From an uncultured archaeon (GTDB lineage: Archaea > Thermoproteota > Nitrososphaeria > Nitrososphaerales > Gagatemarchaeaceae): a DNA stretch of 64,000 nt. Numbering within the stretch: the stretch's first letter is position 1; each line of letters opens with the position of its first letter. Of the stretch, positions 3,312 to 8,845 are shown piece after piece. A program made the position numbers and the translations under genes. The stretch lies in NCBI GenBank assembly GCA_963799775.1, contig CAWCYD010000003.1:992001-1056000 (forward strand). The letters run 5' to 3'. The notes under the pieces were generated by a model. That model was given only the letters and a program-made list of their open reading frames with translations. It made no database searches and had not been told where the DNA came from.

Positions 3312-4367
3312 TTAGCTCTTCGGACCGATTTTGATCGGACCCAGTGAGAAGCTGTACTCTTGCTGCTGAGCGAGGAAGGTGCTCTCCACGCCAGTGAGCA
3401 TGACCATCGTCTTCACTCGTCCTTCGAGAGTCGGGTCCACACGTGCGCCCCAGACGATCCTTACTCGTGGAGGCAGCGACTTTGTTACAAGTTCGCCTGC
3501 CCTTGTGACCTCCTCGAGTGTCACGTCTGAGCCGCCTGTCACGTGGACGAGGGCCCCTTGAGACTTGGTCACGTCCCTGATGTCAAGTAGCTGCCCTTCG
3601 ATGGCCTGCCTGATCGCGATCTCTACCCTGTCCGACCCCTTGGCCTCGCCTACACCGATAGCTGCAAGACCCTTGCGCTCACATATGGCGCGGAGGTCTG
3701 CGTAGTCGATGTTGATGAGACTGGCCGTGGTGATGGTCTCGGTGATGCCCTTGACGAACTGGCCTACCAGCTCGTTTGCAACTCCCAGCGCCTGCTGCAG
3801 TGGCAGGTCGCCTGCGACCTTGGACAGTTTGGTGTTGTCGATTGCGACGACGGTGTCACAGTACTGGCGGAGAACCTTGAGAGCGTTCTTCGCGTTGTCG
3901 TACCTGTATCTCTCGACAGAGAACGGCAAAGTCACGACGCCTATTACTAGGCGGCCCTGCTTCGCGAGTTCCTTGGAGAGCACCTCGATCGCTCCTGTGC
4001 CAGTACCCCCTCCGAGGCCTGCGCAAAGGAAGATGATGTTGCTGTTTTGTGTTTCTTTCTGGAAGTCGTCGAGCGACTCCCTTGTGGCTGCCGCACCGCG
4101 CTGAGGGTACCCTCCGGCGCCCTGGCCGTGCGTGAGCTTCTCACCCATGAGGATCCTGCGATCCGCCTTGGTGATGCTCAGGTGTGCTGCGTCTGTGTTG
4201 GCGGCTATGAGTTTGCCGCCGGTGATGCCTCTCTCCTTGATCCAGGAGATGATGTTGCTTCCGGCTCCCCCGACACCTATTACGGTGACGTTGGGTTTGG
4301 CCATCCGCATGACTGCGGCGATTTTTTCGGCTTCTATGAAGTCCATTCCTTCGTTAGATACTTCCAT
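3312..4367 (-). CDS. ftsZ: Cell division GTPase FtsZ
   Basis: GVGGAGSN, AANTD, tubulin signature GLGGGTGTG, T7 loop INIDYAD, VWGARVD. Confidence 0.95.
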   Translation of the reverse strand: MEVSNEGMDFIEAEKIAAVMRMAKPNVTVIGVGGAGSNIISWIKERGITGGKLIAANTDAAHLSITKADRRILMGEKLTHGQGAGGYPQRGAAATRESLDDFQKETQNSNIIFLCAGLGGGTGTGAIEVLSKELAKQGRLVIGVVTLPFSVERYRYDNAKNALKVLRQYCDTVVAIDNTKLSKVAGDLPLQQALGVANELVGQFVKGITETITTASLINIDYADLRAICERKGLAAIGVGEAKGSDRVEIAIRQAIEGQLLDIRDVTKSQGALVHVTGGSDVTLEEVTRAGELVTKSLPPRVRIVWGARVDPTLEGRVKTMVMLTGVESTFLAQQQEYSFSLGPIKIGPKS

Positions 4368-4380
4368 CGTAGCCTTGTTA

Positions 4381-4524
4381 ATGTAAATTTTTATAGAAAA
4401 AGGTTATGAATTCTGATAAGTTAACATCTTTCTAACGTTAAGTTAACGGGCCTCCTCGGAACAAGGCGTAAATTAACTTAGTCAAGCTTATATTCGGCGC
4501 TCGAGCGGACTAACTTAACGTGGA
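4381..4524. promoter_or_regulatory. AT-rich divergent promoter region with four TAAGTTA boxes
   Basis: TAAGTTA at 4417 and 4439 (+) and at 4474-4480 and 4511-4517 (-); 11-bp inverted repeat 4435-4445/4511-4521. Confidence 0.6.
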
Positions 4525-5094
4525 TTGACTAGTCCCGCCCCATCCGCATCACCTACAATCATCGAGTACCTCTCAACCTGGGTCAAGGACAAGGATGTCG
4601 TCAAGCGGAGCCGGATCCCCACCGAAAAGAAAGTCCTCGCAGCGGTGATGTGCGCATCGGGCTACACGTATAGGGACGCTTCCAAGATATTGGGTGGAAT
4701 CTCCCACGTCGCGGTCCACGACGCCTACAAGTCGGTCATCGCCGCCATGGCTCCCCTCGCAAAGAAGGACCGGACGGTGACGATCGAGGAGAATGCTGCT
4801 TATCTTAACAGCGAGACTCCTGGAGTGGTGTGGATGGCCAGGGACTTCGACACCGGCGAGATACTCTCCTTCCGATGCTCGGTGACCAAATCGCCTGCGG
4901 ATAGCAAGAAGTTCATCGAATCCGTCCTGGCTAGCTGCAACGACAGGCCCTTGTTGAGGGTCGGAAGAGGGCCTAACTTCCCACATTCTTTGAAATATTT
5001 GGACCTTTACTTCCGGATAGACACGACGGCCACGACGAAGTTCCGCCAGAGGATCAGCAACTTCTTCCTGGGCGGTTCCGAGCCGAAGAGCTAG
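4525..5094 (+). CDS. HTH protein with degenerate IS6-like DDE transposase fold, catalytic acidic residues apparently lost
   Basis: HTH GYTYRDASKILGGISHVAVHDAY; VTIEENA, VVWMARDFDTGEILSFRCS and KKFIESVLASCNDRPLLRVGRGPNF resemble archaeal IS6 segments (xxDET, W.A.D....EIL, KP.I.VDRGPWY). Confidence 0.65.
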   Translation: MTSPAPSASPTIIEYLSTWVKDKDVVKRSRIPTEKKVLAAVMCASGYTYRDASKILGGISHVAVHDAYKSVIAAMAPLAKKDRTVTIEENAAYLNSETPGVVWMARDFDTGEILSFRCSVTKSPADSKKFIESVLASCNDRPLLRVGRGPNFPHSLKYLDLYFRIDTTATTKFRQRISNFFLGGSEPKS

Positions 5095-5218: not shown

Positions 5219-5584
5219 TCACGCGGGTGGACATGCCCTCTGCAACACCTGTGTTATCGCCCTCGTCCTCGCCGTCGCCATCTCTCCATCCGAGCCGCAC
5301 CTCGAGTAGCAGTCGGAGGCCCTCTGCACGAAGAAGAGCGCCTGAGAGACCTTGCGGGGCACGGGAGACGAGTCTGACGCGAGGGTGAGCTGTCCTGCGG
5401 TCTCGTACCAGAGACCTGCGTTGGCGTCCTCGCCCATCTTCTCATAGTCGTCGGCTATCCATTCTGCGACGCTCTCCCACTCCGAGGAAGCCTCGATGTC
5501 GTCCAGGATTCCCATCAACGACTTTACGGCGTTCTTGTAATCGCCCGACTTTTCAAGCGCGAATGCTCGCGAGATTTGACCCAT
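5219..5584 (-). CDS. Hypothetical helical-repeat (TPR/SNAP-like) protein
   Basis: Repeated helices with A..Y..A spacing (GDYKNA, ADDYEKMG, WYETAG, ASDCYSRCG). Confidence 0.5.
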   Translation of the reverse strand: MGQISRAFALEKSGDYKNAVKSLMGILDDIEASSEWESVAEWIADDYEKMGEDANAGLWYETAGQLTLASDSSPVPRKVSQALFFVQRASDCYSRCGSDGEMATARTRAITQVLQRACPPA

Positions 5585-7564: not shown

Positions 7565-8845
7565 ATGGGGTCATCTCCTCACGAAATCAACGACAAGATA
7601 GTCCGACATGTGGTGGAAAATGGGGCTGACCTCGGATTTACGAAGTTCTTTTGGAAAGAGTGCGAGCCACTTCCGAGAGACGTCGACAACTACTCCAAGT
7701 TCGCATCAATAATCAAGGATTATGCGCGAGGGATTGACCCGAGACCAATGAAGATGGGAGTCGGGCTCGGGACATCTCAAGCGTGGGCATACATGGATGC
7801 AATGCCCAAACTGGGACACTATCTGAAGGCCTTCGTCGAGCTCGGGCCACCAATGCAAGGCAGACTCTGGCTTACGCTCGAATGTACTCATGGCTACGCC
7901 AATCCAATCGGCCAGTTCGTTCAAGTCCCGACGAAAATCGAATCATGGAGTGACGTACAAGGCGTCTTGGCTCAGATAACGCCGCTCGGACCGGAAACGC
8001 CAACCTTCAGCAGAGAGTATTTGTTTGGCTTCTTCCTAGGCATGCTAATCGGTGACGCGCACAAGCCTAAGCAAGGACGGGGTCACAGGCACGTCAACAT
8101 CACTTTGAGCAAGAAGTATGACACCAACGTTGCTATAGGCGAGTTCTCAAGCCGCTCGGCCCACCAACTCGGTCTTCGGATGGAGAGACGTCCAGACTTG
8201 CCCAAGCCAGAAGACAAGCCGCACGGCTTCTACATTTGGACATCCCAATCATCACCTCTAATCGATTGGATCTTCAACGTGGTACTCGGCTTGAACGATG
8301 GTCAACACACGACGTACGATGCTGTCCGGATGGATTGGGCCTATGAGGCCCCAATTGATTTTCGGCTCGGTCTTCTTCATGGAATCGCCGAGTCGGACGG
8401 GTCGGTGAGTGTGGCAAGTCAAACCGTCGAGTTCTGGGTCATACCCGATTGGGATTTTATGATCAAGCTGCTTGCAACTTTCGGTCTTAGGGGATTTCGG
8501 AACCGGGAGGCAGTTTCCCTATCGAAATCGCAGGCGATAAATTCATTCCAAGTTCCAATCTTCTCTCCCCATCTCCGGACCGTGCGGTATCAATCACACG
8601 AGTTGATGGCGACTACAAGAACTCTGGAGAAGAAGGAAAGGCTGCCCGAAGACGCTAGGGTGGACATCATGCGACTCGCCAAAGAGGGCATGTCGATTCC
8701 TAGAATCGTAGTCGAAATAGCAAAAACGAAGAAGCTTCTCGTTTCGTTTGAGGCTGCTCAGCGATGGGCTAAGAAGAGCGGAGCTTACAAGCCGAAGGGG
8801 ACTCGTGAGCCGAATGAGGAAGACTCTGAGTCGCGTCCCGAGTAA
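7565..8845 (+). CDS. Free-standing double-LAGLIDADG homing endonuclease-like protein with C-terminal HTH
   Basis: Motifs FFLGMLIGDA and LLHGIAESDG; HTH IMRLAKEGMSIPRIV...VSFEAAQRW; no intein splice motifs; codon usage less GC-biased than neighbours. Confidence 0.75.
   Translation: MGSSPHEINDKIVRHVVENGADLGFTKFFWKECEPLPRDVDNYSKFASIIKDYARGIDPRPMKMGVGLGTSQAWAYMDAMPKLGHYLKAFVELGPPMQGRLWLTLECTHGYANPIGQFVQVPTKIESWSDVQGVLAQITPLGPETPTFSREYLFGFFLGMLIGDAHKPKQGRGHRHVNITLSKKYDTNVAIGEFSSRSAHQLGLRMERRPDLPKPEDKPHGFYIWTSQSSPLIDWIFNVVLGLNDGQHTTYDAVRMDWAYEAPIDFRLGLLHGIAESDGSVSVASQTVEFWVIPDWDFMIKLLATFGLRGFRNREAVSLSKSQAINSFQVPIFSPHLRTVRYQSHELMATTRTLEKKERLPEDARVDIMRLAKEGMSIPRIVVEIAKTKKLLVSFEAAQRWAKKSGAYKPKGTREPNEEDSESRPE

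Follow-up and report, generated by a model that had tools for sequence, protein, structure and literature searches.

The window analyzed here is a stretch of 64,000 nucleotides from the genome of an uncultured archaeon of the Gagatemarchaeaceae (labeled G000; contig CAWCYD010000003.1). A 189-residue open reading frame in this window (ORF189) is oriented divergently from the cell-division gene ftsZ and encodes, with high confidence, a domesticated and catalytically dead transposase derived from the IS6 family of insertion sequences (ISs). The spacer between the two genes carries short boxes that resemble the inner part of the terminal inverted repeats (TIRs) of IS6 elements. The preferred reading, held with moderate confidence from sequence comparison, is that the protein would be a TIR-binding autoregulator that was co-opted in this lineage for the control of ftsZ. 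The principal features of the locus, in positions of the window, are as follows.

3312-4367, minus strand: ftsZ, 351 aa, one of four canonical FtsZ paralogs in genome G000.
4368-4524, no strand assigned: divergent control region, GC 0.376, with conserved blocks and three TIR-like boxes (24 unique crown-group spacers aligned).
4525-5094, plus strand: ORF189, a catalytically dead, C-terminally truncated derivative of an IS6-family transposase.
4555-4752, plus strand: helix-turn-helix (HTH) DNA-binding domain, residues 11-76, with helices at 12-22, 33-44, 49-56, and 61-74 in the AlphaFold2 (AF2) model.
4753-5028, plus strand: RNase H-like core without the catalytic triad, residues 77-168, with the order b-b-b-a-b-a-b-a in the AF2 model.
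5029-5091, plus strand: C-terminal remnant, residues 169-189, comprising the helix RQRISNFF and then the low-confidence tail GGSEPK.
5219-5584, minus strand: 121-aa gene, the conserved downstream neighbor, with faint TPR-like signals only (E 0.02-0.2).

ORF189 is a single intact frame with a TTG start codon, and the spacer that separates it from ftsZ is 157 bp long. The G + C contents at third codon positions (GC3) of ORF189, ftsZ, and the 121-aa neighbor are 0.757, 0.715, and 0.769, respectively, a host-like composition. An earlier note, made from the DNA sequence alone, had described a 189-aa frame with host-like codons that diverges from ftsZ over 157 bp, and the coordinates and GC3 values agree with that description. 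The product of 3312-4367 is an FtsZ: it scores 317.7 bits against TIGR00065, above the equivalog cutoff of 295.2, and contains both the Tubulin (PF00091, 136.7 bits) and the FtsZ_C (PF12327, 89.3 bits) domains of Pfam. The orthologs of this ftsZ in the same genus are 94-96% identical.

The direct signal of ORF189 against the NCBIfam model for IS6 transposases (NF033587) is weak, with a score of 18.7 bits for a cutoff of 125 and E = 0.0011. The Pfam match to HTH_23 is sub-threshold (E = 0.14). This weak score is bridged by L020, an intact IS6 transposase of 224 aa from the same-genus genome G017, by which ORF189 is recognized as an IS6 derivative. L020 matches ORF189 with E = 7e-15 and 33% identity. 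Its own scores are 121.5 bits for NF033587, just short of the cutoff, and 43.7 bits for PF13610 (DDE_Tnp_IS240; cutoff 27). The element that encodes L020 is 767 bp long and has perfect 14-bp TIRs and the 8-bp target duplication GCTTCTAG; short TIRs and an 8-bp target duplication are given as IS6 hallmarks in a review of the family. The nearest atlas clusters to ORF189, beyond its own, are PF13610 families. From a library of 1.84 billion representatives, 66 relatives were obtained at E <= 0.001; the clusters of ORF189 itself rank first and full-length IS6 transposases next. The proposal of the earlier note that segments of the protein match IS6 is thus borne out, both by L020 and by the tree described below, in which the family stands beside IS6 transposases.

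As judged by alignment, ORF189 is homologous to IS6 transposases and all three of its catalytic positions are compromised. The motifs IEEN and VGRGP, to which the earlier note had drawn attention, are present and align with IDET and ADGGP of L020; E88 (nt 4786-4788) and G147 (nt 4963-4965) occupy the positions of the first and second catalytic D residues. RQRISNFF aligns with RNTIERFF, and S178 (nt 5056-5058) stands at the position of the catalytic E. The protein ends approximately 45 residues earlier than L020, and the K/R region is truncated. The region of the third acid had been described as absent: the truncation is real, and a remnant of the region survives in RQRISNFF with S in place of E. 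The catalytic columns of 34 unique orthologs contain E24/D8/Q2 at the first position, G32/E2 at the second, and S22/T5/G7 at the third. The former catalytic sites are drifting in this alignment, and the third acid is never present among the 34 orthologs. A catalytic DDE triad followed by K/R is found neither in ORF189 (E88, G147, and S178) nor, in complete form, in any of the 34 orthologs. No inverted pair was found that brackets ORF189, in agreement with the earlier note; L020, as a positive control, shows both its TIRs and its target duplication. What survives at the ORF189 locus are boxes that resemble the inner TIR, all of which lie upstream of the gene or inside it.

The AF2 model of ORF189, built from an alignment of 19 rows, has a predicted local distance difference test (pLDDT) value of 83.8 and a predicted template modeling score (pTM) of 0.76. 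The pLDDT values for the HTH helices (residues 12-74) are mostly above 90. The tail GGSEPK is conserved in the consensus of the subfamily to which ORF189 belongs (subfamily A, below), and pLDDT values below 50 are found at residues 170-176 and 183-189. The top Foldseek matches are DDE transposases and integrases: the ISCth4 transposase (E = 2e-4), followed by retroviral integrases, Mu, TnsB, Metnase, and IstA. With VIA-align, an independent aligner, residues 81-170 are superimposed on the cores of retroviral integrases (Z 6.5-6.8; root-mean-square deviation of 3.4 A over 75-77 residues) and residues 10-78 on HTH domains (Z ~5). The transposase fold and the N-terminal HTH of the earlier note are therefore recovered by Foldseek and by four confident AF2 helices with HTH matches, though the Pfam signal is sub-threshold. 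The structural scores are modest, and the sequence bridge through L020 is the stronger evidence for an IS6 origin. A profile search of PDB sequences with ORF189 gave nothing below E = 0.28. The recognition helix of ORF189, ISHVAVHDAY, is closest to ISYVSVRDAF of the IS6 copies in genome G043.

ORF189 is present as a single copy in G000. Orthologs with 65-78% identity occur, once each, in 9 of the 22 other genomes of the same genus, and the gene order ftsZ / ORF / 121-aa gene / ndk is found in 9/9 of these carriers. Subfamily A, the lineage with ftsZ alongside, includes 35 further loci (34 from metagenomes and 1 from the contig of a metagenome-assembled genome). The metagenome loci were taken from the best 80 of 128 relatives; a contig scan with ORF189 alone as the query gave 1 locus. 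ftsZ is divergent and upstream in 31 of the 35 loci; in the remaining 4, the available upstream sequence does not exceed 199 nt. The arrangement persists down to 47% protein identity. The single-copy orthologs in synteny with ftsZ for which the earlier note had called were thus recovered both in the genus and in subfamily A. No variable position of the gene was seen that would indicate mobility; the position is fixed in the nine same-genus genomes and in 31/31 informative subfamily-A loci. By profile search, the gene is present in 44/81 genomes of the family, in 19/26 of the high-quality ones, and in 6/10 genera, nearly always as a single copy. Its length is conserved at ~180-195 aa in 112 clusters, and the atlas places the clusters of this family in Nitrososphaerota. 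The 121-aa neighbor is 73-85% identical within the genus, has a paralog of ~30% identity at C3:1127033 (C3 denotes contig coordinates of the 2.47-Mb genome G000), and is flipped to the other strand in the 47% tier of subfamily A. When the 121-aa protein was used as a synteny probe in the sister group, it matched only paralogs at ~30% identity.

The ratio of nonsynonymous to synonymous substitution rates (dN/dS) was determined for 34 unique sequences among 37 usable ORFs. Of the 561 possible pairs, the 425 whose dS fell between 0.05 and 1.5 were used. The median is 0.177 (range 0.047-0.483), which indicates purifying selection on an intact frame, the comparison that the earlier note had suggested. 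The corresponding values for the 121-aa gene, ftsZ, and ndk are 0.145, 0.097, and 0.084, respectively. A codon model fitted on the tree gave an omega of 0.09, then 0.066. With dN/dS values of 0.20 and 0.24, respectively, the HTH and the dead core are under about equal constraint. A tree was calculated from 33 chosen rows, of which 14 were IS6 transposases, 9 belonged to subfamily A, and 10 were other short forms; the frameshifted-looking P0167 was excluded. With the root assumed, a 100/99 branch separates all short forms from the 14 IS6 transposases. Subfamily A forms a clade (100/99), with core subfamily B as its sister group (94/88). A single domestication and subsequent vertical inheritance would fit this tree. 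The single gene copy, vertical inheritance, purifying selection, and the absence of IS ends together indicate true domestication, and the proposal of the earlier note that ORF189 is a domesticated, catalytically dead IS6-like protein is strongly supported.

The sequence elements of the spacer and of the ORF are listed below.

4404-4412, no strand assigned: TTATGAATT block, 37-45 nt from the ftsZ ATG and nearly invariant in the crown-group spacers.
4417-4426, plus strand: box 1, TAAGTTAACA, which starts 50 nt from the ftsZ ATG.
4436-4448, plus strand: box 2, CGTTAAGTTAACG, which in this sub-lineage matches the box on either strand (C3:996436(-) and C3:996439(+)).
4484-4494, plus strand: A/T-rich block AAGCTTATATT, which is AAGCTTATTAAT in most orthologs.
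4511-4520, plus strand: box 3 (proximal), TAACTTAACG, which ends 4 nt before the TTG start.
4801-4810, plus strand: internal box TATCTTAACA, inside ORF189 at codons Y93-L94-N95.

The box unit is TA[ATG][CG]TTAAC[GA], 9-10 bp in length, with the family consensus TATCTTAAC. In the alignment of the 24 unique crown-group spacers, the conservation of the blocks far exceeds that of their surroundings. The proximal box is found in 30 of 34 unique subfamily-A spacers. At the internal site, 34 unique orthologs carry TATCTTAAC in 18 cases and AATCTTAAC in 5 more. The Leu codon at this site is CTT in 23 of the 28 sequences of the form x-L-N, compared with 14% CTT gene-wide and 8% in the neighboring genes. 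The internal box is apparently constrained at the DNA level, since synonymous sites elsewhere in the gene are near saturation. A search of both strands of the 2.47-Mb genome gave 13 matches to the box unit, where ~23 would be expected from base composition. Four of these matches (three sites) lie in the 4368-4524 spacer and one inside ORF189. The other 8 matches in the genome are scattered singles without a second cluster that would suggest a wider regulon. The TTATGAATT block has only 4 occurrences in the genome and is distinct from the TIR-like boxes; it is a candidate promoter element or site for another factor. The AAGCTTATATT block, a candidate TATA box and B recognition element of the ORF189 promoter, occupies the place of the left-end-oriented box TGTTAAGATAA that is found in the 47% tier and in subfamily B.

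The TIRs of IS6 elements were read from 31 loci of IS6 relatives in the same order. An inner core is shared among them, as in ...CCGTTAAGATAAGG (G063), GATGATGTTAAGATAAG (G036), and GATACCGTTAAGAT (G017). When reverse-complemented, the consensus proximal box CTTATCTTAACG agrees with the inner IS6 TIR CGTTAAGATAAG in 12/12 bases; the agreement extends over the inner 12 nt of the L171 TIR and over 11 nt of the L165 TIR. The G043 IS6 copies, whose HTH is closest to that of ORF189, have the TIR GATGTTGTTAGGATA, which is one base from the subfamily-B box TGTTAAGATA. An exact TIR match of 10-13 nt is present in 18 of the 34 unique spacers, with the related loci not being independent of one another, and at most 2 of 300 dinucleotide shuffles reach the TIR match of the spacer in 13 of the 34. 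The boxes would thus be the surviving inner part of the IS6 ends, and from their likeness to the TIR we infer that they are sites for the ORF189 protein. Five copies, in G043, of the IS6 element nearest to the domesticated family (L152, L169, L175, L178, and L180) each contain a TAG in frame, with an additional TGA in L180; perfect 15-bp TIRs are kept in each. This could reflect a shared nonsense mutation in an element that is still copied, or read-through or recoding.

The position of the box on the ftsZ side is a DNA-level observation that would connect ORF189 with this neighbor. In 31 of the 34 unique spacers of subfamily A, the start of a box lies 47-59 nt from the ftsZ ATG, with a distance of exactly 50 nt in 20 of them. 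It stays at 50 nt in two spacers that are expanded to 285 and 364 nt. The spacing from the outer to the proximal box is ~92-94 nt in spacers of normal length. Subfamily B lacks the distal box on the ftsZ side, and this box would be a gain restricted to subfamily A. In the 47% tier of that subfamily, an inverted pair of boxes of the subfamily-B type, ~43 nt apart, is retained together with an extra distal box near ftsZ. That ORF189 binds the boxes and regulates its own gene is probable on this pattern; that it also controls the transcription of ftsZ has close to an even chance. The regulator of ftsZ that the earlier note proposed gains support from the TIR-derived boxes in the spacer and from the placement of one of them near the ATG. 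This support is indirect, with binding deduced from the boxes.

The sister subfamily B was represented by 47 loci at 36-43% identity. In 42 of the 44 informative loci, the gene is preceded, in the same orientation, by one that encodes a protein with zf-AN1 and Peptidase_M50 domains (AN1-M50). The gene for CdvA (PF18822, 74.5 bits) follows it, again in the same orientation, in 22 of the 38 loci that extend at least 400 nt downstream and in 12 of the 20 that extend 1,200 nt or more. Boxes occur in the upstream region of the gene itself in 43/47 loci, as an inverted pair ~43 nt apart. The ancestral feature shared by the two subfamilies would be a TIR-derived operator at the promoter of the gene itself. 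An operator at this position fits the left-end promoter of IS6 elements that is described in the IS6 review.

Whole-genome regions join the two arrangements. In G198, ftsZ on the minus strand is followed after 2 kb by AN1-M50, the ORF, and cdvA. G176 has ftsZ, 2 kb, AN1-M50, 1.5 kb, and the ORF; in G041, ftsZ is convergent with the ORF at a distance of 1.2 kb. ftsZ is directly divergent from the ORF in G174 and G172, as in the window, and the two genes are 78 kb apart in G204. Two independent placements, of subfamily A by ftsZ and of subfamily B by cdvA, had been entertained and were dropped, as ftsZ, AN1-M50, the ORF, and cdvA are joined within a few kb in G198, G176, and G041. The two arrangements are better understood as variants of a single ancestral neighborhood that has undergone rearrangement. 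The tie to division genes is real across genera and may reflect one ancestral insertion site.

A mechanism can be outlined from the observed homology, loss of catalysis, and selection, and from the conservation, rarity, and position of the boxes. An IS6 copy would have been fixed in the ancestor of the thaumarchaeal family, in a neighborhood that also held cell-division genes. The outer ends, the catalytic residues, and the C-terminus of this copy would then have disappeared, with the HTH and the dead RNase H-like core retained. The protein would bind the boxes via the HTH, probably as an oligomer joined by the dead core. Binding at the proximal box, which lies between the candidate TATA box and the start codon, and at the internal box would repress its own gene, in the manner of transposases that bind their promoter-bearing left end. 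With the gain in subfamily A of the extra box 47-59 nt upstream of the ftsZ ATG (two boxes in this genome), one ftsZ paralog would have come under ORF189. The ~93-nt spacing from the outer to the proximal box would permit looping across both divergent promoters, with either repression or activation as the conceivable sign at ftsZ. On a bolder version, an IS would have been converted in place, the transposase into a repressor or activator and the terminal repeats into operators, such that it gates one ftsZ paralog where canonical FtsZ coexists with the Cdv/ESCRT system; we regard this version as rather unlikely. It would amount to a transposon-born switch between, or coordinator of, two archaeal division machineries, and, as far as the literature searches showed, to the first domesticated DDE IS transposase with a cellular regulatory role in archaea.

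Several observations weigh against the control of ftsZ by a TIR-binding ORF189. The conserved linkage to ftsZ that the earlier note proposed as a test is seen in subfamily A and is lacking in subfamily B, where none of the 47 loci has ftsZ in the fetched flanks. Boxes of subfamily B are confined to the promoter of the gene itself: cdvA is not preceded by any, and no others occur in up to 6.5 kb of sequence. Of the 39 genomes of genus g20, 27 carry the gene and 7 a canonical FtsZ (E <= 1e-30), and complete genomes such as G080 carry the gene and lack such an FtsZ. The boxes of the sister subfamily at its own promoter without an adjacent ftsZ, and the g20 carriers that mostly lack canonical FtsZ, point to an ancestral role that is independent of ftsZ; the gene family predates the ftsZ adjacency. 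Both the ORF and canonical FtsZ are missing from 12/22 of the same-genus genomes, so neither gene is essential to the group. Adjacency that relatives share can also reflect common descent and not selection. At the DNA level, the three other strong ftsZ paralogs of G000 and its divergent tubulin-family gene carry no boxes, and none were found near the AN1-M50 locus of this genome. The longest exact match of the window spacer to any of 12 TIRs is 8 nt, a length that is reached by 98 of 300 dinucleotide shuffles. The window boxes are each one base off the family consensus, and the TIR likeness belongs to that consensus. The same-genus copies L006 (G011) and L010/L018 (G022) look frameshifted; the G011 frameshift suggests an assembly indel error because ndk and the 121-aa gene are also broken there.

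Some of these observations would suit a role in immunity against ISs, in which an autoregulated, dominant-negative inhibitor of IS6 would occupy the ends of incoming elements or poison transposase multimers through its dead core, with the ftsZ adjacency as happenstance. Truncated transposase-derived inhibitors such as Tn5 Inh and IS1 InsA are analogues for this role. It accounts for the identity of the box consensus with the inner TIR of active IS6 elements from this order, for purifying selection on the HTH and the dead core alike, and for the persistence of the family in genomes without an adjacent ftsZ. Intact IS6 is moreover scarce in the family, with 0 matches at E <= 1e-20 in G000 and a match in 2/24 family genomes. 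G017, however, contains the domesticated gene alongside an IS6 element whose TIRs are perfect and whose 8-bp target duplication is intact, so that the insertion of IS6 was not prevented there. Immunity also leaves unexplained the box that is held 47-59 nt from the ftsZ ATG, in expanded spacers too, and the ~93-nt spacing. The lack of a PADLOC or PHROG match for ORF189 is weak evidence in the same direction, and we consider immunity unlikely. The box near ftsZ would likewise go unexplained if the boxes served autoregulation only and the dead core or the C-terminal tail contacted FtsZ, CdvA, or another division component. Such a partnership draws on the presence of ftsZ and/or cdvA nearby in several genera, with cdvA downstream in 22/38 loci of subfamily B and ftsZ at distances of 1.2-4.4 kb in G041, G198, and G176, on the conserved dead core, and on the conservation of the tail GGSEPK, which is specific to subfamily A though predicted to be disordered. 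The partner would have to differ between the subfamilies, and this explanation is improbable.

Two further explanations are decay and continued mobility. A dead IS6 copy without a host function, in the process of being lost, would have shed its catalytic residues, C-terminus, and ends, as is seen here; 2 of the 9 same-genus copies look frameshifted, and the gene evolves faster than ftsZ (65-79% versus 94-96% identity). Decay is already contradicted by the selection analysis (dN/dS 0.18 and omega 0.07-0.09 with synonymous sites near saturation), and also by 37 usable ORFs across loci down to 47% identity and by a gene that is found in 6/10 genera of the family with a conserved length of ~180-195 aa in 112 clusters. 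It is very improbable. An atypical transposase that is still mobile and uses alternative acidic residues might be imagined from the D at the first position in 8/34 orthologs and from the D at the second position in cluster P0089. The third acid occurs in no member (S, T, or G in 34/34), and the gene is single-copy at a fixed position with neither TIRs nor a target duplication, by which mobility is already contradicted; its probability is negligible.

ORF189 shares the HTH and the RNase H-like core with the IS6/IS26 transposases of the archaeal clade, the nearest being the thaumarchaeal G043-type and G017/G063-type, and the boxes of its family match the inner IS6 TIR. It differs from them in the loss of the DDE triad, the K/R region, the TIRs, and the target duplication, in its length (189 aa versus 213-254 aa), and in being a single-copy gene at a fixed position that is under purifying selection as a host gene. 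The eukaryotic factors CENP-B, ZBED, and FHY3/FAR1 provide a precedent: they are host proteins of DDE-type transposase origin that have retained the DNA-binding domain together with a dead core and are passed on vertically. Such factors sometimes still recognize sites that resemble transposon ends. They are eukaryotic and belong to other superfamilies, whereas the host here is an archaeon and the source is IS6, and the operator of ORF189 itself appears to be derived from an IS end in situ. CENP-B, ZBED, and FHY3/FAR1 are mentioned by name in PMC10027918.

The TldR proteins of bacteria are nuclease-dead repressors derived from TnpB, as described in PMC10705468 and PMC13622181. The likeness is that of a prokaryotic transposon-encoded nuclease that has lost catalysis and been exapted as a transcriptional repressor of host genes. 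TldR is RNA-guided and derived from TnpB, with a RuvC fold, whereas ORF189 is derived from a DDE transposase and would read TIR relics by protein-DNA contact. Tn5 Inh and IS1 InsA are noncatalytic, end-binding derivatives that repress the promoter of the element and/or transposition. These are encoded in active elements and travel along with them, whereas ORF189 is immobile and conserved across the family. The haloarchaeal CdrS/CdrL proteins are a pair of ribbon-helix-helix regulators that are linked to, and co-transcribed with, ftsZ2. Like ORF189, they are small DNA-binding proteins encoded beside an archaeal ftsZ and have been proposed to tie expression to division. ORF189 differs from this pair in its HTH and dead RNase H-like core, in its divergent rather than co-transcribed arrangement, and in its phylum, and no homology between them was found.

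The domestication of transposases into DNA-binding host proteins is well known in eukaryotes. To our knowledge, the regulation of division genes in the phylum of G000 is essentially uncharted. The present case involves a plain DDE IS and is unusually complete in that active relatives, the dead protein, and the end-derived putative operator are all recognizable and the gene is spread over an archaeal family. It offers a concrete hypothesis for the control of one ftsZ in a thaumarchaeal lineage with canonical FtsZ paralogs and CdvA, with one protein and four sites of 9-10 bp. The prokaryotic cases that we found in print involve other nucleases: TnpB for TldR, IscB/TnpB for Cas9/Cas12, and a casposase for Cas1. 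No description of a protein such as ORF189 was found in the literature passages searched; the supplementary neighborhood tables of an ESCRT survey could bear on the cdvA neighbor. The string "domesticat" has 0 occurrences in the available text of the IS6 review and of a 2026 survey of archaeal ISs, and "DDE" has 0 in that of a review on the recruitment of mobile genetic elements in prokaryotes. Within the portions at hand, "transposase", "AN1", and "M50" each have 0 occurrences in a survey of ESCRT gene neighborhoods, and FtsZ has 0 in a paper on the genomics of Gagatemarchaeaceae.

Contigs from four soil/peat metatranscriptome sets (three studies) match the ftsZ region 3312-4389 at 80-99% likeness, so that the ftsZ of close relatives occurs in RNA libraries of such habitats. 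The same contigs, placed at a likeness of at least 80%, leave ORF189 essentially uncovered. They are contigs of relatives, in which ORF189 diverges past the threshold, so that the lack of coverage is no evidence either way on the expression of this gene. At most 10% of the sampled words were present in any of 24 RNA runs.

The four canonical FtsZ paralogs of G000 are 65-91% identical to one another; one is at 3312-4367 of the window and the others are elsewhere in C3. The tubulin-family and FtsZ loci outside the window are C3:558496-559551, C3:1227323-1228327, C3:1909434-1910873, and C3:201098-201562. The genome also contains one divergent tubulin-family gene (~24% identical) and a CdvA homolog at C3:1979428-1979991. 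No match to Snf7/CdvB (PF03357) was found in G000, in a search in which the control genome itself matched only below the cutoff. Canonical FtsZ is patchy in the family (26/81 genomes), and half of the same "genus" has only the divergent form. The paralog at C3:1909434-1910873 is 479 aa long and matches the window FtsZ in two blocks, residues 1-192 (91%) and 193-350 (82%). Approximately 390 nt of extra in-frame sequence lies between the blocks and could represent an insertion, with a mini-intein or an additional domain as candidates. A second division-gene neighborhood at C3:558496-562921(-) comprises, in this order, an AN1-M50 protease, a 203-aa ORF, and an ftsZ paralog, with no boxes. The N-terminal sequence of the 203-aa ORF looks like that of a winged-helix regulator, and the layout echoes that of subfamily B with another protein in the place of the transposase.

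Two further observations were made in the window. Two adjacent long ORFs at 404-2717 on the minus strand read, from their translations alone, like a translation-factor GTPase (GHVDSGK) that is interrupted by an intein-like sequence. A 426-aa ORF at 7565-8845 on the plus strand has a faint match to LAGLIDADG_3 (E = 0.24) and no NCBIfam match, and could be a free-standing or degenerate gene of the homing-endonuclease type.

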